From Escherichia coli (GTDB lineage: Bacteria; Pseudomonadota; Gammaproteobacteria; Enterobacterales; Enterobacteriaceae): a stretch of DNA of 64,000 bases. The DNA lies in NCBI RefSeq assembly GCF_030013205.1, contig NZ_CP122648.1. The stretch is one strand, 5' to 3'. Below, piece after piece: positions 2,405 to 57,025 of the stretch. Made by a program: the position numbers and the translations under genes. How positions within the stretch are numbered: the first letter of the stretch is position 1; every line of letters begins with the position of its first letter. Under the pieces are notes generated by a model. That model saw only the letters and a list, made by a program, of their open reading frames with translations, ran no database searches and was not told the origin of the DNA.

Positions 2405-3355
2405 TCAGCCTGCGATAGCACCAACAACCTGTAATACTTCGTCACGCGCTTGTTCTGGTTTTTCACTGTCAAGCCAGTGAACCCCTTCCCAACCACGCAG
2501 CCAGGTTATCTGCCGCTTCGCCAACTGTCTCGTGGCGCAAACACCTCGATAAACCATTTCATCGTATGAGATTTCGCCTTCAAGGTAAGACCACATCTGG
2601 CGATAACCCACGCAACGAATGGAAGGCAAGTCCGTATGCAAATCTCCTCGGGCAAAAAGCGCCCGGACTTCTGCTTCAAAACCTGAAGCCAACATCTGAT
2701 GAAAACGCTGCTCAATTCGTTGATGGAGCAGTTCACGGCTCGCCGGGGCGATGGCGAACTGATGCACCTGATACGGTAGAGCGTCTCCTGACGTTTGCGT
2801 CAGTTCCGTTAAAGTTTTACCCGAAATGAAAAAAACTTCCAGTGCCCGGGAAAGCCTTTGTGGATCATTTGGATGAATCCTTGCTGCCGCAACCGGATCG
2901 ATCTCCTGAAGTTGACGATGCAATGACTCCCAACCTTGCTCTGCCGCCTGTTGCTCAATTCTGGCCCGCACTTCCGGGTCTGCCGACGGTAGCGGCGACA
3001 ACCCTTCCAGCAATGCCTTGAAATACAACATCGTACCGCCCACTAACAGTGGGATCCGCCCCGCCGCGGTGATATCGGCCATTTCCGCCAGCGCATCGCG
3101 GCGAAAATCAGCAGCCGAGTAAGCCTGCGACGGATCGCGAATATCCAGCAATCGGTGCGGCGCGGCGAGTAACTCTTCAGCGTTCGGCTTCGCCGTCCCG
3201 ATATCCATCCCTTTGTAAATAAGGGCAGAATCAACGCTTATCAACTCTACTGGTAAAATTTTACGCAGCTCAATGGCTAACGCCGTTTTACCGGAGGCCG
3301 TCGGCCCCATCAAAAAAATCGCCTTAGGCAGGCTCGCCTTACTGATATCACTCAT
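2405..3355 (-). CDS. miaA: tRNA dimethylallyltransferase MiaA
   Basis: 316-aa ORF with P-loop GPTASGKT; overlaps 3' end of mutL by 8 nt as in the mutL-miaA-hfq operon. Confidence 0.95.
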
Positions 3356-5195
3356 CTTTCAGGGCTTTTATCGCCGGATGTAAATCAACAGATTGTAACA
3401 GACCACCCGGCGGCGTTTTCACAAGTTGCGGACATAACCGTTCCACGTCCGCTAGCAGGGTTATGGCCTGTGCCATTGACCACTGCGCATGTTCGCTCAT
3501 CAGATTTCGTGCAATCCACTGCGCAATATTGCCAGGTTCGAATACGGACTGCTTCGCCAGGTAGCCTATCAGTTCAGGAATCAAGATTTGTAAATTTTGT
3601 TGGCGTAAGGGTAAAGGCACGGCCCTGATGGTCACATGCTGTGCATCTGACTGGAAATCAATACCCAATTCCGCCAGGGCAGACTGCGCTTTTTCTAATG
3701 CCGATTTTTCTTCGCCAGAAACTTTTAGCCGCAACGGAATAAGCAACGGCTGGGCGCAAACTGGCGCTTCACCCGGCGTCAGTTGCGCCTGACGCAGCCA
3801 ACGTTCTGCCACTGGCAAGGCTAAAAGTGAAATGTTGCCGTCGCGCTCCAGCAACGCACAGTCGGAATGAACGATAGTCAGTACCCGACCAAAACTCTGA
3901 CTGTTCGCCGCAAGTGCAGGTTCCTGCGGTTCTGGCGCTTTTGGTTTTTGCATCGGCGCGGGCGTTTGCAAAAGCTGGCGATACACTTCACCTTGCTGTT
4001 TCTGGTAACCTGGCTGCGCATTCGGCCAGGGGGCAGCCGGACGACTGCCTGAGGCGGGCGCAGGAGTGTAACGCGGAGCTACTGGCTCACGAAATGCCGG
4101 TTCAGCAAAATGATTGCGCCCCGCCGCCACGCGGTTTTCCGGGATGGCGCGCGGTGCAGGTTGTGGTTCATCGTCCAGCGGTAGCGGCGTTTCCAGTTGC
4201 TGTTGTAGCACGCTCAGCACGCCCTGATAGATAAAATCATGCACCAGACGCGACTGATGGAAACGCACTTCGTGTTTGGCAGGGTGCACGTTGACGTCCA
4301 CCTGATGTGGGTCGATCTCCAGATACAGCACAAATGCCGGTTGCTGATCGGCCCCCAGTTTGTCTTCACAGGCCTGGCGGATCGCGTGATTGATCAGGCG
4401 ATCGCGCATCATGCGACCATTCACATAGCAATACTGAATTTCCGCCAGTGCGGGCGTGGTGTGATTCGGATCTGCCACCCAGCCGCGCAGCGTAAGATCG
4501 CCGTGTTGCCATTCAATCGCCAGCGCTTGTTCGAGAAAAGCGGTACCGCAAATCGCGCCTAAGCGCCGTTCTTTTTGCCCGCCTTCCGGCACTGCGCGGT
4601 ACTGACGCACAATTTTACCGTTATGCGACAGGTTGATCGTGACGTCGAAACGCGCCAGCGCAATGCGGCGGATGATCTCATCAATGTGGTTAAATTCGGT
4701 TTTCTCGGTGCGCAGGAATTTGCGCCGCGCCGGGGTGTTGTAGAACAGATCCAGCACCTCCAGCGTCGTTCCCACAGGATGCGCCGCCGGTTTTACCGTC
4801 ACGTCCATATCGCGCCCTTCGGCATAGGCCTGCCAGGCTTCCTGCTGTTCTGCGGTACGTGAAGTGAGCGTCAGGCGGGAAACCGAACTGATACTCGCCA
4901 GAGCCTCACCGCGAAAGCCCAGGCTGATAATGGCTTCGAGATCGTCCAGAGAGGCGATTTTACTGGTGGCATGACGAGCCAGCGCCAGCGCCAGCTCATC
5001 TTTTTTGATACCGCAGCCGTTATCACGAATGCGGATAAGTTTCGCCCCACCGCGTTCGATATCAATATCGATACGCGTCGCACCTGCATCGAGGCTGTTT
5101 TCCACCAGTTCTTTGACTACCGACGCAGGTCGCTCGACCACCTCACCTGCGGCAATCTGGTTCGCCAGTTGTGGCGGTAAGACCTGAATTGGCAT
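3348..5195 (-). CDS. mutL: DNA mismatch repair protein MutL
   Basis: 615 aa from second Met ([38 protein letters not shown]), GHKL ATPase motifs. Confidence 0.95.
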
Positions 5196-5204
5196 CAATA
5201 ATCC

Positions 5205-6542
5205 TTAGTTTGGCAGCGTGCGATCTGGCGTCGTCACCGTACTGGCCGTTTGTGCCGCTGTACCCTGCGGCGCAGATTGCATCGGATGCGCAAGGAAATA
5301 ATTACGCAGGCCTTTGTAAATGGCTTCTGCCAGCTGTTGTTGGTAATCGTCGCTCGCCAGCAAACGTTCTTCGCTGTTGTTGCTGATAAAACCGGTTTCG
5401 ACCAGTACTGATGGGATATCCGGCGAGCGCAGAACGCCAAGGCTGGCGTGTTCTGGTCGACGTTTATGAATTTCGCCAATGCGTTGCAACTGACTGATCA
5501 TACTGGTCGCTACATCATACCCTACCCGCTGGGAATGACCGAACTGTAAATCCAGCACCGCCTGGCTTAAATAGGGGTCAGACTGACTGTTCGCCAGCAC
5601 ATCGCCCGCTCCGCCCAATAGCTCCGACTGTTTCTCATGCTGTTCCAGCCAGCTTGCCATCTCGCTGTTTGCACGACGGTTAGAGAGCACCCATACGGAA
5701 GCGCCAGTCGCACTGCGGTTTGGTGCGGCATCAGCGTGAATCGACACGAGGAAATTGGCGTTTTGCTTACGTGCCACATCGCTGCGCCCCATCACCGAAA
5801 TAAAGTAATCCCCATCACGAGTTAAAACGCCTTTAAACATCGGATCGTCATTGAGCAAAGTACGCAATTTACGCGCGATGGCGATGGTGACATTTTTCTC
5901 CCGCGTACCACCGGGGCCGATAGCGCCAGGATCCTGACCGCCGTGTCCGGCATCAATAGCGATGATAATTTTATCGCCTGTGTTAGCCGTCGCACGCGCT
6001 GCCGGACGCGTTACCGTATTACTGCTGATAACACCCGTAGTGCGGTTACTTTCCGTTTTAAACGGATTGCGCGCCGGTTCGCTGACGCGCGGTGCGACAA
6101 CCGCAGGCGTTTCAACGCGTTTCGCAACCACAGGCGGCGGAGGAGGCGGTGGCGGCGCATCGGCGTTAATCGTAAAGACGACAGTGTAATTGCTGCCATT
6201 CTGCCGCTTCACCGCTTCGGTTTTACCATTTTCGGTAAGATCGACCACCAGCCGTAGCGTTTGTGCATCTTTAGGCGTTCCAGAGCGAATCGCCTTCACC
6301 AGATTATTGCCGCTGAACAACAACGGCAGTCCCTGAATCACGCCCGTTTGTTTGATATCGAGCGCCACGGTGCGTTTGCTTTGATGGCTAAACGCATAAT
6401 CAGGATCGCCAATAAAACTCAACGTTATCCGCGCCTGTTGGTTGCCGTTAGAAACCTGAATATCAGAGAGCGTCGCGGCACCCACCGGCGCGCACAGCAG
6501 CAGCAACGTCGCTACCAACCAATTTCTGATGCGATACATCAT
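5205..6542 (-). CDS. amiB: N-acetylmuramoyl-L-alanine amidase AmiB
   Basis: 445 aa from internal Met ([16 protein letters not shown] signal peptide); amidase_3 core; contains an 8-proline run. Confidence 0.93.
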
Positions 6543-6560
6543 CCCGCCACCTTTCAAAGG

Positions 6561-8526
<1,966 letters not shown>

Positions 8527-8539
8527 TGTATGGTCCGTC

Positions 8540-9679
8540 ATGTCAGAGCCCCTCGATCTCAATCAGTTAGCGCAAAAAATTAAACAGTGGGGGCTGGAAC
8601 TGGGCTTTCAGCAGGTAGGTATTACCGATACCGATCTCAGCGCGTCCGAGCCCAAACTGCAAGCATGGCTGGACAAACAATACCACGGCGAAATGGACTG
8701 GATGGCGCGTCACGGTATGCTGCGTGCTCGTCCTCACGAATTATTGCCCGGTACGCTGCGCGTGATCAGCGTGCGGATGAATTACCTTCCTGCTAACGCC
8801 GCATTTGCCAGCACGCTGAAAAATCCCAAACTCGGCTATGTTAGCCGTTATGCGCTGGGCCGTGACTATCACAAGCTTCTGCGCAACCGACTCAAAAAGC
8901 TGGGCGAGATGATTCAGCAACATTGTGTTTCGCTGAATTTTAGACCGTTTGTCGATTCTGCGCCTATTCTCGAGCGCCCGTTAGCTGAAAAAGCAGGACT
9001 TGGCTGGACAGGTAAGCACTCACTTATCCTCAATCGCGAAGCCGGTTCGTTCTTCTTTTTAGGCGAATTGCTGGTCGATATTCCGCTGCCCGTGGATCAA
9101 CCAGTCGAGGAAAGATGCGGTAAATGCGTGGCCTGTATGACGATTTGCCCGACCGGTGCCATCGTCGAGCCATATACCGTAGATGCTCGCCGCTGCATTT
9201 CTTATCTGACGATAGAACTGGAAGGGGCGATCCCGGAAGAGTTACGCCCGTTAATGGGAAACCGTATTTACGGTTGCGATGACTGCCAGCTTATCTGCCC
9301 GTGGAATCGCTATTCACAACTCACTACAGAAGACGATTTCAGCCCGCGTAAGCCGCTACACGCACCGGAACTCATTGAGTTATTCGCCTGGAGCGAAGAG
9401 AAGTTTTTAAAAGTCACGGAAGGATCGGCGATTCGCCGTATAGGTCACCTGCGCTGGCTGCGTAATATCGCCGTGGCATTAGGCAATGCCCCCTGGGATG
9501 AAACGATTCTGGCGGCGCTGGAGAGTCGCAAAGGTGAGCACCCACTTCTTGATGAGCACATAGCGTGGGCGATTGCGCAGCAAATAGAGAGACGAAATGC
9601 GTGCGTGGTCGAAGTGCAATTGCCGAAAAAACAGCGTCTGGTTCGGGTGATTGAAAAAGGGTTACCGCGTGACGCCTGA
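8540..9679 (+). CDS. queG: epoxyqueuosine reductase QueG
   Basis: 379 aa from internal ATG at 8540 (MSEPLDLNQLAQKIKQWGLELGF); two 4Fe-4S cysteine motifs CGKCVACMTICP and CDDCQLICP. Confidence 0.9.
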   Translation: MSEPLDLNQLAQKIKQWGLELGFQQVGITDTDLSASEPKLQAWLDKQYHGEMDWMARHGMLRARPHELLPGTLRVISVRMNYLPANAAFASTLKNPKLGYVSRYALGRDYHKLLRNRLKKLGEMIQQHCVSLNFRPFVDSAPILERPLAEKAGLGWTGKHSLILNREAGSFFFLGELLVDIPLPVDQPVEERCGKCVACMTICPTGAIVEPYTVDARRCISYLTIELEGAIPEELRPLMGNRIYGCDDCQLICPWNRYSQLTTEDDFSPRKPLHAPELIELFAWSEEKFLKVTEGSAIRRIGHLRWLRNIAVALGNAPWDETILAALESRKGEHPLLDEHIAWAIAQQIERRNACVVEVQLPKKQRLVRVIEKGLPRDA

Positions 9680-9948: not shown

Positions 9949-10024
<76 letters not shown>

Positions 10025-10181
10025 TTAATCTTCGTCTTTCGAACCGCTACTGCCTTGGCTGCCTTCACTCACCTTAGTCACTTACTTTTGTAAGCTCCCA
10101 AGGATTCGTTCAGTTGCCGCCTTGTCGCAATTCGAAATACTGCGATTGGGTGGTCTGTGCTTTGCAGCACTTTTCAAATTT

Positions 10182-10257
<76 letters not shown>

Positions 10258-18441: not shown

Positions 18442-19419
18442 TTATGCCCGGTCAACGCTAAAGGCGATGACTTCAGCCAGTGTCTCCGCGCCCAGCGCCA
18501 ACATCACCAGACGATCAACACCTAATGCCACGCCGGAACAGTCAGGCATACCGACTTTCAAGGCTTCAATCAGATTCTGGTCAATGGGGTGCTGCGGCAA
18601 ACCGCGCGCCGCGCGCTTACGGTTATCTTGTTCAAAGCGTTGTTGCTGCTCACGGGCATCCGTCAATTCATGGAAACCATTCGCCAGCTCAATACCTTTA
18701 TAATAAACCTCAAAGCGTTCAGCGACCCGATGATCTTCGGTACTGATTTGCGCCAGTGATGCCTGGCTGGCTGGAAAGTGGTACACAAAGGTCGGTTTTT
18801 CTTTGCCAATATTTGGCTCTACGCCAAAGGTAAACAGCAATTGTAGCAACGTGTCGCGGTCTTCTTCGGTATCAGCAACGTTGCTTAAATCCAGTTTCGC
18901 TGCCACTTCCCGCAGTTGCGTTTTGTCGGCAGAGAGCGGGTCAATTTCCAGATAACGCAAGAAAGCTTGTTGATAAGAAAGGCTTTCTGCTGCCGGGCAG
19001 TCCAGCACTTGTTGTAAGAGATCGTCCACCTCGTTCATCAACCGGTACATATCATAGTGCGGTCGATACCACTCAAGCATAGTGAACTCAGGGTTGTGAT
19101 AACGCCCCATCTCTTCATTACGGAAGCTGCGGCACAGCTGGAATACCGGCCCACAACCGGCAACCAGCAGGCGCTTCATATGGTATTCCGGGCTGGTCAT
19201 TAACCAGAGATTCATCCCCTGCGAATGCCCAGGGCCAACGAAACGTGTCTCAAACGGGACCAAATGAATATCGGTTACCGTCGCCTGGCTCATACAAGGC
19301 GTCTCCACCTCCAGCACTCCACGATCGGCAAAGAAACGACGGATCTCCGCCATAATCGCCGCGCGTTTTAATAAGTTAGGAATGGATGCGCTCGGCTGCC
19401 AGGATGCCGTTTCGCTCAT
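18442..19419 (-). CDS. epmA: EF-P lysine-34 beta-lysyltransferase EpmA (PoxA/GenX)
   Basis: 325 aa from [30 protein letters not shown]; class II lysyl-tRNA synthetase-like catalytic core. Confidence 0.92.
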
Positions 19420-25795: not shown

Positions 25796-26362
25796 TTACT
25801 TCACGCGAGAGACGTATTCACCAGAGCGGGTATCCACTTTGATGACTTCGCCGATTTGTACAAACAGCGGAACTTTAACCACAGCGCCAGTAGACAGGGT
25901 AGCTGGTTTGCCGCCAGTACCTGCGGTATCACCTTTCAGGCCCGGATCGGTATCAACGATTTCCAGTTCAACGAAGTTCGGCGGAGTAACGGAGATCGGC
26001 TGACCATTCCACAGAGTTACGATACACTCTGCCTGATCAAGCAGCCATTTCGCGTTGTCGCCAATTGCTTTTGCGTCAGCAGACAGCTGCTCGAAAGTTT
26101 CGTTGTTCATGAAGTGCCAGAACTCACCGTCGTTGTACAGGTAAGTCAGGTTCATATCGACAACATCAGCGCCTTCAGCGGAATCAGTAGATTTGAAGGT
26201 TTTTTCTACGCGAGTACCGGTCAGCAGACGACGCAGTTTAACGCGAGCAAATGCCTGGCCTTTACCCGGTTTTACGAATTCACTCGCTTCAACCGCGTAA
26301 GGTTCGCCGTCTAACATGATTTTAAGACCAGCACGAAAATCGTTGCTATAGTACGTTGCCAT
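25796..26362 (-). CDS. efp: translation elongation factor P
   Basis: 188-aa [27 protein letters not shown] with the modified Lys34 loop KPGKGQA. Confidence 0.97.
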
Positions 26363-26403: not shown

Positions 26404-27432
26404 ATGGCGCATATTGTAACCCTAAATACCCCATCCAGAGAAGATTGGTTAACGCAACTTGCCGATGTTGTGACCGATCCTGATGAACTTCTGCGTCTTT
26501 TGAATATAGACGCGGACGAAAAACTGTTGGCCGGACGCAGCGCCAAAAAGCTTTTTGCCCTGCGTGTGCCCCGCTCATTTATCGATCGCATGGAGAAAGG
26601 CAATCCGAACGATCCGCTTTTGCGTCAGGTAATTACCTCGCAAGATGAGTTTGTCGTCGCGCCCGGATTCTCCACCGACCCGCTGGAAGAACAGCACAGC
26701 GTAGTGCCAGGTTTGTTGCATAAATACCACAACCGGGCGCTTTTGCTGGTCAAAGGCGGCTGCGCGGTAAATTGCCGCTATTGCTTCCGTCGTCACTTCC
26801 CCTATGCCGAAAATCAGGGCAACAAGCGTAACTGGCAGACTGCACTTGAGTATGTTGCTGCGCATCCGGAACTGGACGAGATGATTTTCTCCGGCGGCGA
26901 TCCGCTGATGGCGAAAGATCACGAGCTGGACTGGTTGCTCACACAACTGGAAGCCATCCCGCATATCAAACGTCTGCGGATTCACAGCCGTCTGCCGATT
27001 GTGATCCCGGCACGCATCACAGATGCGCTGGTTGAACGCTTTTCACATTCTACGCTGCAAATCTTGCTGGTGAATCACATCAACCATGCCAATGAGGTAG
27101 ATGAAACATTCCGTCAGGCGATGGCTAAGTTGCGCCGGGTAGGCGTTACTTTGCTCAACCAGAGCGTTCTGTTACGTGGCGTGAACGATAACGCACAAAC
27201 GCTGGCAAACCTGAGTAATGCGTTGTTCGATGCCGGCGTGATGCCGTATTACCTGCATGTGCTCGATAAGGTACAGGGCGCGGCGCATTTTATGGTGAGT
27301 GATGACGAAGCACGGCAGATTATGCGTGAGTTGCTGACACTAGTGTCGGGATATCTGGTGCCTAAACTGGCGCGAGAAATTGGCGGCGAACCCAGCAAAA
27401 CGCCGCTGGATCTCCAGTTACGCCAGCAGTAA
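26404..27432 (+). CDS. epmB: EF-P beta-lysylation protein EpmB (lysine 2,3-aminomutase, YjeK)
   Basis: 342-aa ORF with radical-SAM CxxxCxxC motif (CAVNCRYC); divergent from efp. Confidence 0.93.
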   Translation: MAHIVTLNTPSREDWLTQLADVVTDPDELLRLLNIDADEKLLAGRSAKKLFALRVPRSFIDRMEKGNPNDPLLRQVITSQDEFVVAPGFSTDPLEEQHSVVPGLLHKYHNRALLLVKGGCAVNCRYCFRRHFPYAENQGNKRNWQTALEYVAAHPELDEMIFSGGDPLMAKDHELDWLLTQLEAIPHIKRLRIHSRLPIVIPARITDALVERFSHSTLQILLVNHINHANEVDETFRQAMAKLRRVGVTLLNQSVLLRGVNDNAQTLANLSNALFDAGVMPYYLHVLDKVQGAAHFMVSDDEARQIMRELLTLVSGYLVPKLAREIGGEPSKTPLDLQLRQQ

Positions 27433-39120: not shown

Positions 39121-39196
39121 GCCCGGATAGCTCAGTCGGTAGAGCAGGGGATTGAAAATCCCCGTGTCCTTGGTTCGATTCCGAGTCCGGGCACCA
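39121..39196 (+). tRNA. pheU: tRNA-Phe (GAA)
   Basis: GCCCGGATAGCTCAGTCGGTAGAGCAGGGGATTGAAAATCCCCGTGTCCTTGGTTCGATTCCGAGTCCGGGCACCA, 76 nt with GAA anticodon and CCA end. Confidence 0.97.
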
Positions 39197-39209
39197 AATT
39201 CATATCAAC

Positions 39210-39234
39210 GGACCTCCACGGAGGTCCGTTTTTC
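39210..39234 (+). terminator. pheU intrinsic terminator
   Basis: ggacctcc/ggaggtcc hairpin followed by GTTTTT immediately after the tRNA. Confidence 0.7.
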
Positions 39235-39393
39235 GTTTCAGAACACCATGATTTAAGTGTTCTTCCTCCAAATCAATTCTACCGAACTCAACCAAATTCT
39301 CCCCACATCAACCTCATTGTGTGGGTATAATTGCGGGTATACCCCAGTTCGACAGAATTTATACCCTCTTTAACGCATTCAGAAGGCTGAACT

Positions 39394-40656
39394 ATGGCAC
39401 TGACTGACGCAAAAATCCGGGCTGCAAAGCCCACTGACAAGGCTTATAAACTCACTGACGGGGCCGGCATGTTCCTGCTGGTTCATCCTAATGGTTCCCG
39501 TTACTGGCGTCTCCGCTATCGTATTCTGGGTAAGGAGAAGACTCTGGCACTTGGTGTGTATCCAGAAGTTTCTCTCTCCGAAGCTCGTACAAAACGGGAT
39601 GAGGCCCGAAAACTGATTTCAGAGGGGATTGACCCTTGCGAACAGAAAAGAGCTAAAAAAGTTGTCCCTGATTTACAGCTCTCTTTTGAACATATTGCAC
39701 GACGCTGGCATGCCAGTAATAAACAATGGGCACAATCACACAGCGATAAAGTACTCAAAAGCCTCGAGACACACGTTTTCCCCTTTATCGGCAACCGGGA
39801 TATCACAACACTCAGTACCCCGGACCTGCTTATCCCTGTTCGTGCTGCAGAAGCTAAACAAATTTATGAAATCGCCAGTCGTCTGCAGCAAAGAATATCT
39901 GCTGTAATGCGTTATGCCGTACAGTCTGGCATCATCAGATATAACCCGGCTCTGGATATGGCTGGTGCATTGACCACGGTAAAACGCCAGCATCGCCCTG
40001 CACTGGATCTTTCACGCCTGCCTGAACTTCTGTCGCGTATTGACGGTTATAAAGGCCAGCCTGTCACCCGACTGGCAGTTATGCTGAATTTACTGGTTTT
40101 TATTCGTTCCAGTGAACTCAGATACGCCCGCTGGTCTGAAATTGATATTGACAATGCCATGTGGACTATTCCAGCCGAACGCGAACCTCTGCCTGGCGTA
40201 AAATTCTCACACCGGGGCTCCAAGATGCGAACACCACATCTTGTGCCACTCAGCAAACAGGCTGTAGCCATACTGGCAGAACTACAGACATGGGCTGGTG
40301 AAAATGGTCTGATCTTTACGGGAGCACATGACCCGCATAAACCAATCAGTGAAAATACTGTAAATAAAGCCCTGAGGGTGATGGGGTATGACACAACCCA
40401 GGATGTCTGTGGCCATGGATTCCGTGCGATGGCATGTAGTGCGCTGATCGAATCAGGTTTGTGGTCCCGCGATGCTGTTGAACGTCAGATGAGCCATCAG
40501 GAACGTAACGGTGTACGCGCTGCGTATATCCATAAAGCCGAACATCTGGAAGAACGCCGGCTGATGCTACAGTGGTGGGCAGATTTTCTGAATGCGAACA
40601 GAGAGAAATGTATCAGTCCGTTTGATTATGCAAAGATCAACAATCCATTAAAATAG
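39394..40656 (+). CDS. P4-type tyrosine integrase
   Basis: 420-aa ORF MALTDAKIRAAKPTDKAYKLTDGAGMFLLVHPNGSRYWRLRYR with C-terminal catalytic region (HGFRAMA, Y in RAAYIH); 200 bp downstream of a tRNA gene; SD GAAGG. Confidence 0.92.
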   Translation: MALTDAKIRAAKPTDKAYKLTDGAGMFLLVHPNGSRYWRLRYRILGKEKTLALGVYPEVSLSEARTKRDEARKLISEGIDPCEQKRAKKVVPDLQLSFEHIARRWHASNKQWAQSHSDKVLKSLETHVFPFIGNRDITTLSTPDLLIPVRAAEAKQIYEIASRLQQRISAVMRYAVQSGIIRYNPALDMAGALTTVKRQHRPALDLSRLPELLSRIDGYKGQPVTRLAVMLNLLVFIRSSELRYARWSEIDIDNAMWTIPAEREPLPGVKFSHRGSKMRTPHLVPLSKQAVAILAELQTWAGENGLIFTGAHDPHKPISENTVNKALRVMGYDTTQDVCGHGFRAMACSALIESGLWSRDAVERQMSHQERNGVRAAYIHKAEHLEERRLMLQWWADFLNANREKCISPFDYAKINNPLK

Positions 40657-40819
40657 TAATAATCCCCGGGCAAAATGCCCGGGGTACTTTGAATGACTAT
40701 TTTTCTTTGGGCGTGATGAAGAAGATTGATGGTAAGACAAATTACTCCCGACTCTTACGTATTTTCATGGAAAGAAATCCCCCAATATCATCCATCGGGA
40801 TCGAGTAATAACCTGTAAT

Positions 40820-41005
40820 ATGCTGCAGGTTCCGACAGCGGCGGCAAATATGCAGCACATATTGTGCTCACTGATCGGCACCTGCCGTCTGAACAATGCG
40901 GAGTCAGAAAAATTGCTGCATTACGTCACAGATCATATGCAGGACTGGTCGGCAAACCGGGTACGCGATCTGTTGCCCTGGAAAGTTGATCTGACCTCTC
41001 AGTAA
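40820..41005 (+). pseudogene. IS66-family transposase C-terminal fragment
   Basis: 61-aa ORF LIGTCRLNNAESEKLLHYVTDHMQDWSANRVRDLLPW, paralogous to the C-terminus of the fragment at 41730-42251. Confidence 0.6.
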
Positions 41006-41069
41006 ATATCAATACGGTTCTGGCGAGCCGCTTACAATCGAACTGGGATACAGGGAGATAAAACAGACG

Positions 41070-41429
41070 ATGCAACTGAGCAGGCTGACGCTGAGAAGTA
41101 AAAAGCCGGAGCTTGTGGAGCAAGAGCTGTGGGGTGTCTTACTGGCTTATAATCTGGTGAGATATCAGATGATTAAAATGGCGGAACATCTGAAAGGTTA
41201 CTGGCCGAATCAACTGAGTTTCTCAGAATCATGCGGAATGGTGATGAGAATGCTGATGACATTGCAGGGCGCTTCACCGGGACATATACCGGAGCTGATG
41301 CGCGATCTTGCAAGTATGGGACAACTTGTGAAATTACCGACAATAAGGGAAAGGGCCTTCCCGAGAGTGGTAAAGGAGAGGCCCTGGAAATACCCCACAG
41401 CCCCGAAAAAGAGCCAGTCAGTTGCTTAA
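41070..41429 (+). pseudogene. transposase C-terminal fragment, IS4-like (family uncertain)
   Basis: 119-aa ORF with EQELWGVLLAYNLVRYQM motif recalled from IS4-family transposase C-termini. Confidence 0.45.
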
Positions 41430-41753
41430 CTGACTGGCATTAGGCCGCCGGGGGCGTTTTTTTACCACCGGGACTTCGGACATAACGGTGTTTTCAGTAA
41501 GTACGACAGGTACTGTGGAGGCACTCCCGTAAAGACGGGCATCAAGTTCCCGCTCCGACATACCTGCGGGCAGAGGCCATGAAAGGCCAGCTTTTCGGAA
41601 GCGCACGAACATACCACAAACTGTTGATTTTGGTACGCCCAGGCGACGTCCGGCCACAATCCGTGGTAAATGTTCTTCAAAGTGAAGACGTAAAGCTTCA
41701 GTGATCCAGGTCCGGTATTCCATACGATAGTGTCCATTAAAAATGATGGACAT
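41418..41753 (-). pseudogene. transposase N-terminal HTH fragment (family not assigned)
   Basis: 111-aa ORF with helix-turn-helix-like segment RRLGVPKSTVCGMFVRFRKAG; truncated. Confidence 0.35.
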
Positions 41754-42251
41754 TATTTTTGTGGAGCCGGAGGAAACACACCAGACTGTTTAAATGAGCC
41801 GGTTACCGAAATACGCGGGTTGCCGGTGTCTGAACGCCTGGCGGTCAGGCAAATGCAGAGTAAACCGCTACTGACTTCCCTGTATAAGCTGATGCAGGAG
41901 AAAGAACACACATTATCGAAAAAATGCCGTCTGAGAGATGCGTTCCGGTATATCCGGAAGCACTGGGTTGCGTTGTGCAACTTCTGTGATGATGGTCTGG
42001 CGGAGGCGGATAATAATGCCGCGGAAAGAGCGCTTCGTGCAGTCTGTCTCGGAAAGAAAAACTTTATGTTCTTCGGCAGCGATCACGGCGGCGAGCGAGG
42101 AGCACTGTTGTACGGGCTGATCGGCACCTGCCGACTGAACGGTATCGATCCGGAAGCGTATCTGCGCCATATCCTGAGCGTACTGCCGGAATGGCCTTCC
42201 AACCGAGTTGACGAACTCCTGCCATGGAACGTAGTACTCACCAATAAATAA
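41730..42251 (+). pseudogene. IS66-family transposase (TnpC) C-terminal fragment
   Basis: 173-aa ORF ending NNAAERALRAVCLGKKNFMFFGSDHGGERGALLYGLIGTCRLNGIDPEAYLRHILSVLPEWPSNRVDELLPWN, the conserved IS66 TnpC C-terminal signature; lacks the N-terminal catalytic part. Confidence 0.7.
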
Positions 42252-42385
42252 GCGTCAATACGGCACTCCGTTAACGCTTACGTTTAAGTCATAAAGCCAT
42301 GCAGAACGCTCACCTCCCAAGATCTTGGTTTTTATAAGGTGTAATGATAATGTAAGCTAATGTTTCACATGCCAAAGGAAACACC

Positions 42386-43714
42386 ATGAGCCACAGGGAA
42401 TTGTTCAGCGAATTTCTTGAAAATTTGAATCTTGACCTCAAACAGGCAAAAAAGATCAGCTATCACTATCGAAAAATAACCAAGTCATTAAATCTTGCGT
42501 TCAGAGGAACGAGTTCCCGGGTAGCAAACCGCTTGAAAGTGGGGTCAGTAGGCAGACATACCGCAATAAAAGGCATATCCGATCTGGATATGCTTTATAT
42601 TATGCCCCCCAATCAGTATGAATATTATAACCGTAAGGATAATGGTCAGTCTGCATTGCTTACAGATGTCAGAAACATTCTGGCGGAAGAATATCCTGAC
42701 CAGACTGTGAAAAAGGACAGACTGGTTGTTCAGATCATCTTTAAAAACTTTTATGTCGAGGTTCAACCTGTATTCAGACAGGATGATGACAGCTTTAAAT
42801 TCCCTGAAAGCTATAATGGAGGAGCATGGCGCATTACAAAACCTCTTCACGAAAAGGCGGCCATGACCGCATTTTCGCGAGATAAATCCAATAATCTGCG
42901 CAAGCTGTGTAAAATGATCAGAGCCTGGAAGAACCTGCATGGCGTCAATATGGGTGGCTTACTGATAGACACACTAGCGTATCGCTTTCTTTCATCAACA
43001 TCAGATTATGACAATACCGGAAATGGCAGCCTGGGAGCCCTCGCCAGAGACTTTTTTGAATATCTGTCAAATGAGGAGAGAAAGGAAAGGTATCTCGCGT
43101 TAGGCAGTAATCAGCATGTACGTGTTAAATCTCCCTGGTTTGGCCGGGCAGCGAAACACGCGTATGAATTATGTTGTGATGCCTTAGACGCTGAGGGGGC
43201 TGCCAGTGAAAATGACCGCTGGCGCAAAGTGTTCGGACGAGCCTTCCCCAGACGTAAAGTGGGTATTATGGAAGCCCGTCTTGGTCTGGAATCGCATGCG
43301 GCAGATGCTGTTCCCTGGACCGATACCGAAGAGTTTATAGAGGATAAATATCCGGTGGATATCAGGTACTCACTCAACCTTGACTGTACCGTAACCCAGG
43401 ATGGTTTCCCTCCCAGAAGCCTGAGGGAGATGCTTACCAGAAGATTCCGCCTCTCCGCTCGAAAATCTCTCCTTTTCCGGGCAGACTTGACAGAAATGGA
43501 GGCAGAGGAACCCTACACCGTTATGTGGAAGGTACTGAACGTGGGTGACGAAGCACGCAGAAGAAATATGATCCGGGGACAAATCGTTTCGGACGGCGGC
43601 TACTGTACGAAGAAAGAAACTACCGACTTCCGCGGAGATCACATGGTAGAATGCTATGTGATAAAAAATGAGGTTGTGGTTGCCCGGGCCCAGATTGAAG
43701 TTCCCATAAGCTGA
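42386..43714 (+). CDS. polymerase-beta-superfamily nucleotidyltransferase, SMODS/CD-NTase-like (candidate signalling nucleotide or oligonucleotide synthase)
   Basis: 442-aa ORF with SD AAAGGAA; NTase signature G-S-x10-D-L-D (GSVGRHTAIKGISDLD) near the N-terminus; stop overlaps the SD of the next gene. Confidence 0.6.
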   Translation: MSHRELFSEFLENLNLDLKQAKKISYHYRKITKSLNLAFRGTSSRVANRLKVGSVGRHTAIKGISDLDMLYIMPPNQYEYYNRKDNGQSALLTDVRNILAEEYPDQTVKKDRLVVQIIFKNFYVEVQPVFRQDDDSFKFPESYNGGAWRITKPLHEKAAMTAFSRDKSNNLRKLCKMIRAWKNLHGVNMGGLLIDTLAYRFLSSTSDYDNTGNGSLGALARDFFEYLSNEERKERYLALGSNQHVRVKSPWFGRAAKHAYELCCDALDAEGAASENDRWRKVFGRAFPRRKVGIMEARLGLESHAADAVPWTDTEEFIEDKYPVDIRYSLNLDCTVTQDGFPPRSLREMLTRRFRLSARKSLLFRADLTEMEAEEPYTVMWKVLNVGDEARRRNMIRGQIVSDGGYCTKKETTDFRGDHMVECYVIKNEVVVARAQIEVPIS

Positions 43715-43721
43715 GGTTTTT

Positions 43722-44297
43722 ATGACGCAATCAGAGATGCTGAAATTAATCGCCCGACATGGTTATAACGTTGGATTTGGCGCTAAGAAAAACTTTGCCA
43801 CCTATGATCTGATTTGTAAGGCATCCGGTTGGATTAGCTTTATTTCTCTTGCTGTCGGTGTGTTCGCCCTTTTTATTCCTGAGCTGGCCACAAACGTCAT
43901 TTCCGCGATATTAATTATATTTGGTGTTGCTACAATGTACATTCAGTTTTATGACTCGGAAAAGCAGAGTTATGAAAGTGCGGGGATTGAGCAGACCAAA
44001 ATTTTTAATGAACTTGAAGTCATCTACCGCAACGTAAAAAGCGATGCAAACTTTGACTATCAGCGTACACAACAATCCATCGACGCTATCATGTCCCGGT
44101 TTTACGGCACGGTCATCAGCAAACAGATCTTCGGAAGTAACTGGTACGCACATTATAAATTTTACTGTGAATTTGAAAAAGCATGGGTTGAAGAAGAGCT
44201 GAACCTGACACTGAAGGACAAAATCCCGCTTTCGCTCTGCTTTCTCGCCGGTCTGGCGATCATTTTTACTATAGCTGTCATCTGGAAAACGCCCTGA
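43722..44297 (+). CDS. 2-TM membrane protein, SLATT-like candidate effector
   Basis: 191-aa ORF starting 8 nt after the NTase stop; two adjacent hydrophobic helices (ISFISLAVGVFALFIPELATNVISAILIIFGVATMYI) plus a C-terminal hydrophobic segment. Confidence 0.6.
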   Translation: MTQSEMLKLIARHGYNVGFGAKKNFATYDLICKASGWISFISLAVGVFALFIPELATNVISAILIIFGVATMYIQFYDSEKQSYESAGIEQTKIFNELEVIYRNVKSDANFDYQRTQQSIDAIMSRFYGTVISKQIFGSNWYAHYKFYCEFEKAWVEEELNLTLKDKIPLSLCFLAGLAIIFTIAVIWKTP

Positions 44298-44848
44298 TGC
44301 TGCAGCCAATGAAAAATTCAGCAAGCTGACTGTCAAATATGCGATGTATAGCCGGTATCACCATCCAGTGTACGTTCTATAAGGGGGGCGCTTGGAAAAC
44401 GGGTAGAGTCAAGATGTGGCGCGGTAATTTTACAGGTCAGGCATATCTGTTGCCGCCTCTTTCGATTGGCGGTGCCTTACTGTCCTGACCATAAATCCTG
44501 TTTCCACACCCCGCTCATCGAAGCGGACATGCGCTTCTAACACATCCGGCTCTCGGACAGAATCATGCCTTCGCCCACGGAAACCTCTGCGGGAGCTTCG
44601 GTGCATATTTTCATGGAAGGGGATCACCCAATAACTTCCATCGAGATCGGGTCATAACGGCCAATCCGTGATCGAATAGAGCGGAATACGCACTCTGACG
44701 AACTGCTTACATTTAAACTAATTACAAACTATATAAATCCGCCTTGCTCATTCACAGGGTAGATATATTCTTACTTTTAATTTTATGTGTAATTAACTGA
44801 TGACGAAAAATGAATTGAACTGTAAATGCATATCTAAGTTTTTCATTC

Positions 44849-45574
44849 TTATGATGTACATAATACCTTAAAATTATCAACTAGCTGAGCATTAACCTCC
44901 ATCTGACTAATCCCCCATAATGCGGCTAACTGTTTCTCTGCAATCCCACTATCCCATGGCATTAGTGGGTCATTACGAAACTTAGCAAATGGCCCATCTG
45001 TTTCTGTAAGAATGCGTGATTTGGGTATTTTCAAAACTAAGGCCTTACCCTTTATTGTATCGAGCATAGCAGGCCCCACTGAGAACCAGCATCCTAAATC
45101 AATTGCCCTTTCAAGCTGCTTAGGTGTTCCAGTGAACCAATGCAATATTGCCACCCCATCGATATTTTCAATCTCATCAAGCACCGCTGATGCACTTCCC
45201 CGACTATGGATAGTCATAATCTTGCCACCAGCCCGATTTACACTGTTGAGAATGTGTCGGAACACTTTCAATTGAATATCCCAATGTTCTTTAAATCCCT
45301 GTCCACCATCAAGCCCTATTTCCCCTACATACTTAGTTTCCGAAAGCAATGAATCAAACAGGTCTAACTCATGCGATCTTTGATGCGCGATTTGAGGATG
45401 TAGCCCAAGAGCAGTTCGGATTCGTTGACTTTCTTTAGCCAATAAAGAAGTACCATGCCATGCTTTAGGTGTTGTTGTCACCGACAGAATATAAGTCCCT
45501 CGACGTTTACTTTCTTCAGCCACGAGGTCTGGCCGAGGATATAAGTCTAGATGACAGTGCATATCGATGCTCAT
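44849..45574 (-). CDS. qatD: QatD-like TatD-family metal-dependent hydrolase
   Basis: 241-aa ORF beginning MSIDMHCHLDLYP (TatD HxH motif); ATGA overlap with upstream qatC. Confidence 0.8.
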   Translation of the reverse strand: MSIDMHCHLDLYPRPDLVAEESKRRGTYILSVTTTPKAWHGTSLLAKESQRIRTALGLHPQIAHQRSHELDLFDSLLSETKYVGEIGLDGGQGFKEHWDIQLKVFRHILNSVNRAGGKIMTIHSRGSASAVLDEIENIDGVAILHWFTGTPKQLERAIDLGCWFSVGPAMLDTIKGKALVLKIPKSRILTETDGPFAKFRNDPLMPWDSGIAEKQLAALWGISQMEVNAQLVDNFKVLCTS

Positions 45575-46890
45575 ACTATGTTCTCACTCAGTAAATAGCT
45601 TTCAACCTCATCCAGGCCATCCTTAAATACTTGCTTGAAATTATCAAATTCTGCCGTAGGCAAAGGGCCACTTTTGGCAATCCATGTACCTATTTTCAAA
45701 GTCGATTTCTGCGTGATCGCAATCCTAAGGGCGATCAGGTCGTCCCTGCGATCTATTTCATTCATTACTTTAGCTAAGGACTGGAAAATATATTCAACAT
45801 CTCTACTAATTCCCCCTGCATGAAGTGATGCTCGTCGAATGATACACGGTATACATACCCCACATTGCTGCCCCATTCGTTTCCAATGACTGCAGGATAC
45901 TGTACTTTCCACAATTTTAGATAAGAGCTGCTTATTTGAACATTCGGAGATCATTTTTCCTTTTGTCTTAAACTGATATGGATTGATTATTTGACAAGAA
46001 ATACCGAGCGCATCAAAGATCTTTTGTATGCTCGTAATAAAATGTGGATGTGTTGTTCGTGTGCTCAGCGAACCTATCCGCCGTGGAGTAAGTGGTGCAT
46101 TTAATGAGATAAATCCATTTTCAGGTACGAACAAATCAATCTTTTCTTGTTGAGATATCTCTTGTACGGCACAAGCACCTACGGCCGCAAAGGCAAGAAA
46201 ATTGAGGCTACGAGTTCGCATCGTAATATCAGTCACGCCTTGATAAATGTGTGGGTCAGCATTAATCTCAAAGCGCGAAAATTGGCCACTTAATTTTTCA
46301 GCAATCTGATCTTGACGAGACTTATCCCCCTTATAAGCATGACTAACCAAAAGTGGAGCGCGCCCTGCAGCCAGAAGATCTATTGCACCAATAGCTGAAT
46401 CCAGACCTCCTGAAAATAGGCTGACACAGTCAAGCCCTTTTAGCTTAATCAGACGATGCCTTGAATGCTGGCTATAAGGCTCTGGCGGTGCATAACCATC
46501 GTCACAAAATTCGAAATCCCAGATGTCTCCACTAAGAAAATGCAAAGCACTCTCAAGTTCTTTCTTTAGACTAATCCATCTGGATGGTTCATGAAGGGGG
46601 AGTCGTAACGACAATTGGCGGGTCCAACCATCCTCGGAACTTTCACGCTGAACGAAAGTATCTGCTGCAGTTACTGCTAATGCAACACTCAGAAAATCCA
46701 TGACCTTAGCTGGAAGCTGTACTCCCAAACGTCTGATCCGATCAATCGCAGGATTCCCGATAACAGATATATCTCCGCGCCTCTGACCACTTAATCCATA
46801 TAGCTGAACAGGTAACACTTTCTCACTTGCTGGCGGCAAATGGTGATGTTTATGATGGAAAACTAATTGTGTCACTGGTATGCCTCCCAT
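45571..46890 (-). CDS. qatC: QatC-like QueC-family PP-loop ATPase
   Basis: 439-aa ORF with PP-loop SGGLDS (DCVSLFSGGLDSAIGAIDLL); overlaps qatB by 19 nt. Confidence 0.8.
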   Translation of the reverse strand: MGGIPVTQLVFHHKHHHLPPASEKVLPVQLYGLSGQRRGDISVIGNPAIDRIRRLGVQLPAKVMDFLSVALAVTAADTFVQRESSEDGWTRQLSLRLPLHEPSRWISLKKELESALHFLSGDIWDFEFCDDGYAPPEPYSQHSRHRLIKLKGLDCVSLFSGGLDSAIGAIDLLAAGRAPLLVSHAYKGDKSRQDQIAEKLSGQFSRFEINADPHIYQGVTDITMRTRSLNFLAFAAVGACAVQEISQQEKIDLFVPENGFISLNAPLTPRRIGSLSTRTTHPHFITSIQKIFDALGISCQIINPYQFKTKGKMISECSNKQLLSKIVESTVSCSHWKRMGQQCGVCIPCIIRRASLHAGGISRDVEYIFQSLAKVMNEIDRRDDLIALRIAITQKSTLKIGTWIAKSGPLPTAEFDNFKQVFKDGLDEVESYLLSENIV

Positions 46891-47624
46891 TCTTGCCAGG
46901 CCTCAATAATGGCCTGACGTTCAATTTTTACCATTTGGTTTCGTGTGAACGATCTTATGTTACCGGCAAGTTTTGGTGCCATATGTTTATCAACAACAAC
47001 TTTAATCAATTCCCGGAGTTCAATTTCTGCATGAATTGCCTTTGAAGGTGTATCTGCTTTGTTCCATGCCCTATTAGAATCCATTACCATCTGAAGGAAA
47101 ATACTTTCCGCTAGATAACCAATCATTGTGTCAACAATCACACCATCAGTTATTTTTTGAGGATCGAAAATTTCTACGCCATCAAGAGCCTCCACTAAAG
47201 CATGGTTCATGGCCGCACAGATCTTTTCTGAGTCACCATCCTGTGATGTTAAAGCTTGAGCAATAGTTGATATTGCTATTTCGCATGGAAGGCCTGCCAA
47301 ACTGCCCAAATCGATGCTTGGTTCTCCGGGAGCCGAAGGCATTCCCACTAAAGCCCCAAATAATTCGGCCCCAGCTTGCGTGACACTCCCTAATCGCCGA
47401 GCAGCGTTACTGCTCCCTCCGGAGGCTTTTCGCGCGTAGTGCCCTATGGCTTTTCTGAAATCTGCTCGATTTCCATTTGATACCGCATTTCCCAACGATT
47501 CTCGAAATGGCGCAAACCTCCTTTCTTGCGGCGAGGGTAACGGTTGCTGTGGCTGATCATCAGCCCATGGTGGAACCAGCGGAGAGCCACCTCCTGGACC
47601 TTTACTTGATTGTGATGTTCCCAT
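46872..47624 (-). CDS. qatB: QatB-like protein (no recognisable domain)
   Basis: 250-aa ORF whose ATG overlaps the qatA stop (TAATG); position between KAP NTPase and QueC-like genes. Confidence 0.7.
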   Translation of the reverse strand: MGTSQSSKGPGGGSPLVPPWADDQPQQPLPSPQERRFAPFRESLGNAVSNGNRADFRKAIGHYARKASGGSSNAARRLGSVTQAGAELFGALVGMPSAPGEPSIDLGSLAGLPCEIAISTIAQALTSQDGDSEKICAAMNHALVEALDGVEIFDPQKITDGVIVDTMIGYLAESIFLQMVMDSNRAWNKADTPSKAIHAEIELRELIKVVVDKHMAPKLAGNIRSFTRNQMVKIERQAIIEAWQEWEAYQ

Positions 47625-49408
47625 TAAGCGTCCTTATTCCATTGTTCATCTTTTAATGCTGCAGTCATCCACGCTGGTCGTTTCATCCCCAACTGTAATT
47701 CCTGTAGATAACGAATTAATATGCTGGCTGCATCTGTTGAGTAGCGGGCCAACAGACATGCGCCGGAAAAGCCTCTGGGCTTACGATCCCAATCTGATAC
47801 CTGCCGTAACTGGTTAATTAAACCTTCCATTACAGGTATTTGCTCCTCACGAGGAAGTGCTTTCAAAAGGTTTTCTGCTGTAGGAGAACTAGTGTTTTTC
47901 AATTCAATTAGTGCATTTAGTACTTCCCGTCCAGATGGCGATAAACCAACCACATATGCACCTATTGGCATAGTTTCTCGGGACAGATATATGGCGGCCC
48001 TTAAGTCAATCCCACCAAGACGAGGTTCAAGTTGGGCCCATTGACTGATGAAAGATTTAGTCGTTGGACTATCAGTCCATGTCTTTGGTGCATCAGTAGG
48101 TATTTGACCGCCATTATCGTCAAGCTGTTTAAGTATCTGGGGAACACCTTGTTCAATATCCACGAGATGATATAAATCAGCGGTGCCATCCACTCCAACA
48201 CAGCGTTCAAAAATTACTAGCTTAGTAATAATTGCTTCATCCAAAGGCATTGCTCGTCGCTTCGCAATTTGAGATCGCATTTTCACAACATTCAACAAGC
48301 GTTTAACGATCCTGGGATTACCATGAATAATTGGAGAGTTGGCTAAAATGGGAGCAATACGGTCAGCACGCGCAAACGCCAGCGCGAGGTTGCTATCATC
48401 CGCTTCACCAGTCATTTTTAAGGCCTCCTGACGTGAGATTGGTTCATCTTTCCAGGATTGCTGTAACGCCTTCTCTAAGCCCTCACGGAGCATAGTTATT
48501 TTTTCGCCTTCTAAGCCATGTTCAATGGCATAAAGCATGAACAGATACGAACGGATCTCACGGACCCCAGCCTTAGGCACCCGAATAGGAACCTGGATTA
48601 GCTTATCCAGATAATCTATTTGATGGCGCTGTGATGCCCCTTTGAAGTAATCAGCCACAGAAGAGCGAATCATGTCCTCATCTGCTGCAATAATAAAGGC
48701 TGTATTAGTCAAGAAAAGGAATAGCCTGATAGCTTCAAGTGTATGGATAGCATTGGCAGGGAGACAGCGGTCTAGGTTATCTATTACCACAATGAGTGGC
48801 TTTCCAAGTTCTTCTAGAATTTCCCCATATTCCTTACGAAAGGCATCAATCTGCTGAGGGGGGCTTTTTTTTGTTTGTGGTTTAATCAAACCACAAGCAG
48901 TTTCTTTACCTTCTTTAGCTATATTGCCTAAAGCCTCATACTCTTCCTGACTCTGGATGCCATCGGTGATATTTCTTAATGCACCAATCCCCCTAGAAAG
49001 CAAACCGCCAGTAGGTAATCCTGCCATTAAAGCTGTACCCTCAGCTAGTAATCCCATAGCTCTAAAACCATCAACTCGACTAAGGAGTCTCTTAGTTTTT
49101 GATATAAGGGTAGAATTACCTTCAGCAGCTTTTGTCAATTCTGTAGCGATGACTTCAAGAAGTGCGGCACGGGCGTCGTCGTACCCCTGATAGAGCCAAG
49201 AGTCAAAATTGATAACAATCCAATCTTTGTCGTCTTGCTCAAGTTTTTGCTCTATCAGTTTTAACAGAGAGGATTTACCTGCCCCCCAGTTTCCAAAAAT
49301 TCCGATAGATACTGGTAACATATCTTTCGTGGTAAGTACATCCACGGCTAACTGAGATACTTCACCAAAATTTAGGTAGTCTTCTGATGACTCTTTGTCT
49401 GACCACAT
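47624..49408 (-). CDS. qatA: QatA-like KAP-family P-loop NTPase
   Basis: 594-aa ORF with Walker A GNWGAGKSS near the N-terminus and Walker B-like VVIDNLDRC; SD AAGGA upstream of ATG at 49408. Confidence 0.8.
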   Translation of the reverse strand: MWSDKESSEDYLNFGEVSQLAVDVLTTKDMLPVSIGIFGNWGAGKSSLLKLIEQKLEQDDKDWIVINFDSWLYQGYDDARAALLEVIATELTKAAEGNSTLISKTKRLLSRVDGFRAMGLLAEGTALMAGLPTGGLLSRGIGALRNITDGIQSQEEYEALGNIAKEGKETACGLIKPQTKKSPPQQIDAFRKEYGEILEELGKPLIVVIDNLDRCLPANAIHTLEAIRLFLFLTNTAFIIAADEDMIRSSVADYFKGASQRHQIDYLDKLIQVPIRVPKAGVREIRSYLFMLYAIEHGLEGEKITMLREGLEKALQQSWKDEPISRQEALKMTGEADDSNLALAFARADRIAPILANSPIIHGNPRIVKRLLNVVKMRSQIAKRRAMPLDEAIITKLVIFERCVGVDGTADLYHLVDIEQGVPQILKQLDDNGGQIPTDAPKTWTDSPTTKSFISQWAQLEPRLGGIDLRAAIYLSRETMPIGAYVVGLSPSGREVLNALIELKNTSSPTAENLLKALPREEQIPVMEGLINQLRQVSDWDRKPRGFSGACLLARYSTDAASILIRYLQELQLGMKRPAWMTAALKDEQWNKDA

Positions 49409-49539
49409 TTTTATATCCTTTACATCACCAATTTTTACGTCATTGAGTAAACTACAGGTTTGATAAAACCAACTCTGTTCAGGTGGGCAAATTCAGTGTA
49501 CCACTTCATCAATAATCCAATATGATGACTGCTATAGAT

Positions 49540-50742
49540 CTATTTTTTAAAGAATGAAATAAGCTTTCTTATCCCAGTCCATATTTTCCTATCAGAATCC
49601 GAAGGGTTAAATTCGCTCTTGTCAAAATCAGCAACCTCAGCAACCTCAGCAACCTCAGCAACCTCAGCAACCTCAGCAACCTCAGCAACCTCAGCAACCT
49701 CAGCAACCTCAGCAACCTCAGCAACCTCAGCAACCTCAGCAACCTCAGCAACCTCAGCAAGGTTTATTCTATTTTGATGAGCTGTCAAATGTTCTTTGTT
49801 AATTTCATCTCTAATTAGCTGTTCTTTTTCTATGCTGTAGTTTTTGTCATTATAAGTCACATCAAAATCATCTAAGAAAACGATATAAATCAATTTAAAA
49901 AAACTAGTCTTAAATAAAAAACTATCGCACTCATCAGGAAAACCAAAAAAGAAAACATTAAGATATTTGGTTGCTTTGCGCTTGTCTTTTAGTCCATTAT
50001 AATACTTATTTGCTTCTGCTCTTTGTTTTTCATACTCACTACAGAAAAAACTCTTTTTACTTTCATCCCATTCTGAAGCATCAATTTCAAGTTTATATGC
50101 TTGTTTGGTACCTTTCTTTCTGGCTAAAAAAGTAAGGTAATATCTATTCGAATTTATCTCCAGCCGTATATTAGATTGAATTTTACCAAAATAAATTGCT
50201 GGCTTATTATATCTAATTCCTTCTTTATAGATGATTAGTTGAAAAGTATCTTTATAAGTTCTAACTCCATAAGGGGGAATTGATAATGGTTCATAGAGAT
50301 TATCTCCATTAATGTAGTAGTCTACTACCGGTTTGATGCTTGAAGATGACACAGGGTGTACTTTACCTCCCAAATCTTTTTCATCATCTCGCGTCTGTTT
50401 GATAATTCTTCTGCCAGAAGAGTCGTAATTTCTTTCAGACACATCAAGTTTCAGAAGAGATATAGCTAATGCCGGTGGTGAATTATGCTTTTTATTATTC
50501 TTTGAGTTACACTTATTTTTACTCTTAGGATCATGAATCTTACATCCCGGCCTATGAGTCTCTTTATATCGAAAGTATGATTGATTTAAATTTATTTCTT
50601 TGAAGCTACATGGAGTAGCGGGTATCCTACATTTGTCATACGGGCATTCAAAAGTGGTTGTTCGTATATAAAGATCATCCATTTCCCGAAGATCATGACC
50701 ATGAACAATTTCACCACTAACAGAATCTCTTGCTATTGTCAC
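49540..50742 (-). CDS. uncharacterised cysteine-rich protein with C-terminal (AEV)n repeat
   Basis: 400-aa ORF from GTG at 50742 preceded by a perfect SD (AAGGAG, 5-nt spacer); N-terminal CPYDKC...C...C cysteine cluster; AT-rich; ends 131 bp upstream of qatA on the same strand. Confidence 0.7.
   Translation of the reverse strand: MTIARDSVSGEIVHGHDLREMDDLYIRTTTFECPYDKCRIPATPCSFKEINLNQSYFRYKETHRPGCKIHDPKSKNKCNSKNNKKHNSPPALAISLLKLDVSERNYDSSGRRIIKQTRDDEKDLGGKVHPVSSSSIKPVVDYYINGDNLYEPLSIPPYGVRTYKDTFQLIIYKEGIRYNKPAIYFGKIQSNIRLEINSNRYYLTFLARKKGTKQAYKLEIDASEWDESKKSFFCSEYEKQRAEANKYYNGLKDKRKATKYLNVFFFGFPDECDSFLFKTSFFKLIYIVFLDDFDVTYNDKNYSIEKEQLIRDEINKEHLTAHQNRINLAEVAEVAEVAEVAEVAEVAEVAEVAEVAEVAEVAEVAEVAEVADFDKSEFNPSDSDRKIWTGIRKLISFFKK
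49629..49760. repeat. perfect 9-bp tandem repeat, about 14.7 copies (unit AGCAACCTC on + strand)
   Basis: Uninterrupted identical units read directly; in-frame within the 400-aa ORF, encoding Ala-Glu-Val repeats. Confidence 0.97.
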
Positions 50743-52142: not shown

Positions 52143-52194
52143 AACGAAATCCCTGCCGGCAATCACACTGCCTGATGGCAGCATAATCCACTTA

Positions 52195-56940: not shown

Positions 56941-57025
56941 TTCCTGACCGTTATCCGTTCAACCGCAGCGAATACACTATCCGGCCTCCGGAGGCATTCT
57001 GCTGCGTGCTAAAGGAGAAAATATT

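Follow-up and report, generated by a model that had tools for sequence, protein, structure and literature searches.

An eight-proline tract in the Escherichia coli amidase AmiB, at the junction of the AMIN domain and the inter-domain linker, and its distance from the genes for EF-P and its modification

The DNA analyzed in this study is a stretch of 64,000 nucleotides from Escherichia coli (contig NZ_CP122648.1 of assembly GCF_030013205.1), which is referred to as the window. The minus strand near the start of the window carries amiB, and its sequence is 100% identical to amiB of NZ_CP028192 and of other swine E. coli isolates. The AmiB protein features two domains that are separated by a linker, and a run of eight consecutive prolines (P8) is found between the first domain and the remainder of the linker. 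The gene and its parts are as follows.

5205..6542, minus strand: amiB, N-acetylmuramoyl-L-alanine amidase AmiB, 445 amino acids plus stop (RefSeq annotation of a 100%-identical record; Pfam AMIN and Amidase_3)
6162..6473, minus strand: AMIN septal-targeting beta-sandwich domain, residues ~24-127 (Pfam PF11741; AlphaFold strands)
6132..6155, minus strand: eight proline codons, AmiB residues 130-137 (direct translation)
5970..6161, minus strand: disordered inter-domain linker, residues 128-191, ~64 residues (AlphaFold coil; outside the coverage of 8c0j)
5283..5969, minus strand: Amidase_3 catalytic domain, residues ~192-420 (Pfam PF01520; PDB 8c0j; AlphaFold)

The eight prolines are encoded by the codon series CCG CCA CCG CCT CCT CCG CCG CCT, which has a G+C content of 83%. 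A first-pass annotation of this DNA had reported PPPPPPPP in AmiB, encoded by a GC-rich triplet run, and both statements were borne out by the translation; the range that was given for the run, 6125..6160, brackets the tract. The tract lies in a genuine reading frame, as shown by the annotated amiB gene and by thousands of homologs that are read in the same frame. An open reading frame with an arginine run on the plus strand (5943..6257) was considered and rejected, being merely the antisense shadow of the AmiB proline codons. Using the proline frequency of the window (4.6%) and treating residues as independent, the expected number of P8 runs is ~3e-7 per window and ~2.5e-5 per proteome of 1.35 million residues, and the tract is clearly far beyond chance. 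AmiB is alone among the 57 annotated proteins of the window in having at least three consecutive prolines, and PP occurs in 18 of the 57.

The N-terminal AMIN domain and the C-terminal Amidase_3 domain, which together make up the AmiB-type architecture, were identified from Pfam, from an AlphaFold model and from the structure 8c0j. Pfam places PF11741 (AMIN) at residues 27-112 with 20.8 bits (cut-off 20.5) and PF01520 (Amidase_3) at residues 194-413 with 164.7 bits (E 2.8e-48). The only solved structure of E. coli AmiB, 8c0j, covers residues 190-422 without residues 1-189 (match E 5e-143). The AlphaFold model, for which an alignment of 43 sequences was used as input, has a mean pLDDT of 80. 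In this model the last strand of the AMIN beta-sandwich is E118-127 with a pLDDT of ~93, residues 128-191 are coil whose pLDDT drops from 60 to 34, and residue 192 is the first of the amidase fold. Because the last AMIN strand ends at residue 127 and is followed by coil over residues 128-191, the tract (residues 130-137) is predicted to form the N-terminal edge of the disordered linker, where it would start 3 residues past the last AMIN strand.

The remainder of the linker also features short conserved motifs. Among 47 Enterobacteriaceae sequences the linker is 61-85 amino acids long, and the segment VVAKRVE, located directly after the tract, has a majority fraction of 0.89. The portion encoded by 5970..6131 (residues 138-191) also carries a conserved ARNPF motif, which takes the form (A/K)(R/K)NPF and persists in distant AmiB orthologs that have no poly-P. 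These conserved motifs may be binding motifs, and the presence of VVAKRVE beside the tract suggests that this region is possibly not just a passive spacer but a binding motif. Natural AmiB alleles of E. coli and Shigella (P0006-P0016) are 414-420 amino acids long; they have lost 25-31 linker residues, including the NPF motif, and have kept P8.

Conservation of the tract was determined at three levels of relatedness. The sample of close relatives consisted of the 120 nearest 90%-identity clusters (Escherichia, Shigella, Citrobacter, and Salmonella), in which the longest proline run is P8 in 99 clusters, P9 in 2, P7 in 1, P6 in 12, and P4 in 1. Another 5 of the 120 clusters have PPSPPP, one of which has 49 member sequences and represents an E. 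coli allele. For the family, species-representative genomes were scanned using MscM, encoded between amiB and efp, as the anchor, and this gave 80 Enterobacteriaceae loci, 46 of which cover the linker. A poly-P tract is found at the same position in all 46, with a length of 4 (one locus), 5 (seven), 6 (eight), 7 (thirteen), 8 (eleven), 9 (five), or 10 prolines (one locus, Raoultella planticola). The wider sample comprised 121 full-length family representatives at the 50% identity level, for which the longest run was taken over the 90 residues that precede the amidase domain; it is two or fewer in 107 representatives, three in 10, four in one (P0121), and six in one (P0234). P0121, with PPPP, is the closest representative and is 79% identical to AmiB. 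AmiB orthologs that are 68% and 58% identical share the domain layout and contain nothing longer than PP, or no PP whatever. An initial reading of the 50%-identity representatives, by which the tract is confined to Escherichia, Citrobacter, and Salmonella, was overturned by the 80-species scan, in which the tract is Enterobacteriaceae-wide. A long proline tract thus appears to be specific to AmiB of the Enterobacteriaceae, with the more distant orthologs having no such tract. The range of lengths (4-10), the PPSPPP allele, and the tract-free orthologs outside the Enterobacteriaceae together indicate that no specific length is essential.

The codons of the tract provide information on how it is maintained. 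Across species the tract uses CCG, CCA, CCT, and CCC at fractions of 0.50, 0.30, 0.17, and 0.03, with background fractions of 0.55, 0.20, 0.14, and 0.11, respectively. The synonymous proline codons are mixed, and differences between species are found at nearly every position of the tract. This mixed and species-variable codon usage indicates that proline is maintained at the level of the protein while whole codons are gained and lost, and sets the tract apart from a pure triplet microsatellite; the pattern argues for selection on the AmiB protein as what maintains the prolines. A column-conservation score of 0.39 for the tract was disregarded as an artefact that arises from indel columns.

Polyproline is known to stall ribosomes, and the stall is relieved by EF-P that has been beta-lysylated by EpmA and EpmB. 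This rule, which the first-pass annotation took as established, is textbook knowledge. amiB was named as the gene with the longest proline run in E. coli in a 2015 paper, which also reported a sharp ribosome-footprint peak at the eight amiB proline codons in the efp+ E. coli datasets GSE33671 and GSE53767 (PMC4402525). [quoted passage not shown] The position of the AmiB tract fits this pattern. In a literature search for AmiB together with EF-P or polyproline, the coverage of which excluded Doerfel 2013, Peil 2013, and Woolstenhulme 2015, PMC4402525 was the sole relevant paper, and amiB was not found in the supplements of three EF-P papers (PMC4140641, PMC5021804, and PMC5811046). No report of AmiB levels in efp or epm mutants was found in the literature accessible to this search.

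The window also encodes EF-P and two of the enzymes that modify it. These genes were placed by tblastn of RefSeq proteins onto the window.

18442..19419, minus strand: epmA, EF-P-(R)-beta-lysine ligase (tblastn 100% to WP_000004771.1; Pfam tRNA-synt_2)
25796..26362, minus strand: efp, elongation factor P, lysine type K34 (tblastn 100%; Pfam EFP_N, EFP, and Elong-fact-P_C; loop KPGKGQ)
26404..27432, plus strand: epmB, lysine 2,3-aminomutase-like radical SAM enzyme, divergent from efp (tblastn 100%; Pfam Radical_SAM)

All three genes are intact and each product is 100% identical to its RefSeq protein, so that a lysine-type EF-P (K34 and P32, in a KPGK34G loop), EpmA, and EpmB are found together. 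The tblastn and Pfam results agree with the first-pass annotation in placing efp, epmA, and epmB inside the window at 18-27 kb. That annotation also described them as the complete EF-P modification set, which is true of EpmA and EpmB, whose presence is functionally sufficient; epmC (yfcM) is not among the annotated features covering the window. EpmA attaches (R)-beta-lysine to K34 of EF-P, which is followed by hydroxylation by EpmC, and the hydroxylation is negligible for function (PMC6544042). EF-P itself contains a diproline, in the sequence VTPPNF.

The distance from amiB to epmA, efp, and epmB is ~13-20 kb, and the longest proline run in E. coli (PMC4402525) is therefore encoded within 20 kb of efp. 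A pre-specified gene would fall within ±20 kb of efp with p ~0.008-0.009 (a chance of ~0.8-0.9%), and the corresponding p for sharing a 64 kb window with efp is ~0.025-0.028. Additionally, in strains without the pheU island, cadC, which encodes a PPP motif, is located 13.5 kb from efp on its other side. These observations could be taken to mean that a major client of EF-P is functionally clustered or co-regulated with the EF-P machinery. However, the gene was picked post hoc, and the co-location is weak evidence. The genes are on mixed strands in separate transcription units, and amiB is separated from the EF-P genes by over 10 unrelated genes as well as a tRNA-Gly array. In the Enterobacteriaceae scan, most of the loci whose flanks are complete, from many genera, contain amiB, epmA, and efp(-epmB) together, and the order amiB...epmA...efp is, as judged from these loci, ordinary conserved synteny of the family. 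Since the Enterobacteriaceae conserve the tract as well as the synteny, the two are inseparable inside the family. In GCA_900155695.1, where AmiB (P0124, 58% identical) is devoid of PP, the order epmA-mscM-psd-rsgA-orn-tsaE-amiB-mutL-miaA is intact all the same, and the distance from epmA to amiB is ~7.5 kb; the 10 kb beyond epmA contain neither efp nor frd. Because the epmA-amiB order is kept where AmiB has no PP, the linkage is independent of the tract. Seven Enterobacteriaceae loci (L016, L024, L025, L028, L030, L048, and L065) have the tract and no efp in the +10 kb flank. With no adjacency, mixed strands, and a linkage that is untied to the tract, amiB does not form an operon or a co-regulated cluster with efp and epmAB, and clustering of a client with its factor is extremely improbable as an explanation of the proximity. 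The first-pass annotation was right in its restraint on co-regulation; the significance that it implied by setting the tract alongside the EF-P genes is not upheld by the distance, the strands, the intervening genes, or the synteny that is kept without PP in AmiB.

The other alternatives concern the pause itself. The stall at P8 after synthesis of the AMIN domain may have been selected for the time that it provides, whether for Sec targeting or export or to handle the two domains in an ordered way, with EF-P tuning the output of AmiB. This would be consistent with the tract being inside the -2 to +9 zone enriched for polyproline at domain ends (PMC5811046), with a strong pause that is seen even in efp+ cells (PMC4402525), and with conservation of the tract throughout the Enterobacteriaceae. 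However, AmiB would fold in the periplasm after export, which makes a benefit for co-translational folding in the cytoplasm unlikely. Furthermore, the tract varies in length, and orthologs that are 58-68% identical have the same domain layout without it. A selected pause is therefore considered unlikely. A further possibility is that the stall acts as an EF-P-sensitive polar attenuator, such that limiting EF-P leads to uncoupling of the ribosome and RNA polymerase and to Rho termination before mutL-miaA-hfq-hflX. In delta-efp cells, translation of polyproline reporter mRNAs in which a rut site comes after the polyproline motif dropped ~30-fold and was restored by the Rho inhibitor Psu (PMC5021804). 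The genes tsaE-amiB-mutL-miaA also share a strand and lie close together, with intergenic gaps of 18 and 9 nt. Nevertheless, the only 80-nt window with a C/G of at least 1.8 is located upstream of the tract, in tsaE, and neither amiB nor mutL has one past the tract. With no rut-like, C-rich and G-poor stretch downstream, the idea of Rho polarity is left without sequence support. The genes mutL, miaA, and hfq have internal promoters, which also counts against it. A simple scan of 3300..8700 gave no sigma-70 promoter-like site. Neither amiB nor mutL is listed in the supplements of PMC5021804, and polar attenuation is very unlikely. In a more general form, the poly-P tract would make the output of AmiB, and possibly the transcription of mutL-miaA-hfq, a readout of EF-P activity, which is quite improbable. 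If this were true, translational capacity would be coupled to cell-wall cleavage at the septum, or else to mismatch repair and the level of Hfq, and the length of the tract (4-10) would set the sensitivity to EF-P activity species by species.

The explanation that we favor, with a probability of roughly 80%, is that P8 is a polyproline spacer and a pause site that would be expected to receive help from EF-P, and that the proximity of the EF-P genes reflects inherited gene order with no regulatory link. A conserved poly-P spacer of variable length would start the disordered linker that joins the AMIN domain to the amidase domain. As a stiff, extended polyproline-II segment, it most likely keeps the two periplasmic domains of AmiB apart. 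The strong ribosome pausing at P8 would then be an unavoidable side effect of the spacer in this low-abundance periplasmic enzyme. Efficient translation across P8 is expected to need beta-lysylated EF-P, and the yield of AmiB would depend on EF-P to that extent. The location of efp, epmA, and epmB 13-20 kb from amiB would be a coincidence of the gene order inherited in the Enterobacteriaceae.

AmiB and AmiC are cell-separation amidases of the Amidase_3 family that are activated by EnvC and NlpD. The protein described here shares with the AMIN amidases AmiB and AmiC a signal peptide that is followed by the AMIN beta-sandwich, a disordered linker, and Amidase_3, and the tsaE-amiB-mutL-miaA context is conserved as well. 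It differs from the wider AMIN/Amidase_3 family in its tract, as 107 of the 121 representatives have at most PP before the amidase domain and runs of at least four prolines are found only in P0121 and P0234. The Pro-rich region of TonB is a rigid periplasmic spacer with X-Pro repeats. Like spacers of the TonB type, the AmiB tract is a proline-rich, probably extended segment that parts two modules of an envelope protein; in contrast to the X-Pro repeats of TonB, it is homopolymeric (P4-P10), and its function as a spacer is a proposed one. The tract also resembles the EF-P-dependent stall motifs (PPP/XPPX, such as PPPIP in CadC) in that it consists of a run of proline codons, has a footprint peak in E. 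coli (PMC4402525), and occurs in a host with lysine-type EF-P, EpmA, and EpmB. It is far longer than a typical motif of this kind, and relief by EF-P would be expected for AmiB from the general rule. Additionally, unlike motifs of the CadC type, the tract is located in the linker of a periplasmic protein and not in a regulator where copy number matters.

The tract matters little as it stands, since the feature is real, ordinary, and already known; the literature already covers the run, the fact that no proline run in E. coli is longer, and the pausing of ribosomes there. What is added here is that the position of the tract is conserved and its length variable across the Enterobacteriaceae, with the tract absent from more distant orthologs, that the tract is located exactly at the AMIN/linker boundary, and that the nearby EF-P genes are a coincidence of synteny. 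AmiB would be a convenient natural reporter for EF-P activity, which is a use and not a discovery.

Several additional features of the region were observed. In GCA_900155695.1, a genome of the Enterobacterales (L086/L087, FUHL01000002.1), rsgA is fragmented and is called as pieces of 77 and 132 amino acids; together with the PP-free AmiB, this may point to a genome undergoing reduction. The tandem array of tRNA-Gly(GCC) at 9949..10257 has two copies, compared to three in NZ_CP028192, and is 103 bp shorter, which represents copy-number variation of the array. CadC, a classic EF-P client, was considered as a second such client within the window and is absent, as a genomic island displaces cadC out of range. 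In NZ_CP028192 (L002 7919..9457), cadC encodes PPPIP at residue 120 and is located 13.5 kb from efp on the side opposite to amiB. The island of the window spans 39121..64000, is inserted at a tRNA-Phe gene (39121..39196), and includes the following features.

39394..40653: island integrase
42386..44294: nucleotide-binding protein with a SLATT-domain partner
44852..49408: Qat anti-phage system with a KAP NTPase

The island also carries IS fragments, hha, yfjI, a GTPase, and an Ag43 adhesin that reaches the end of the window. At least 80% of the stretch 39121..64000 is matched in only 20 of 5426 E. coli genomes.
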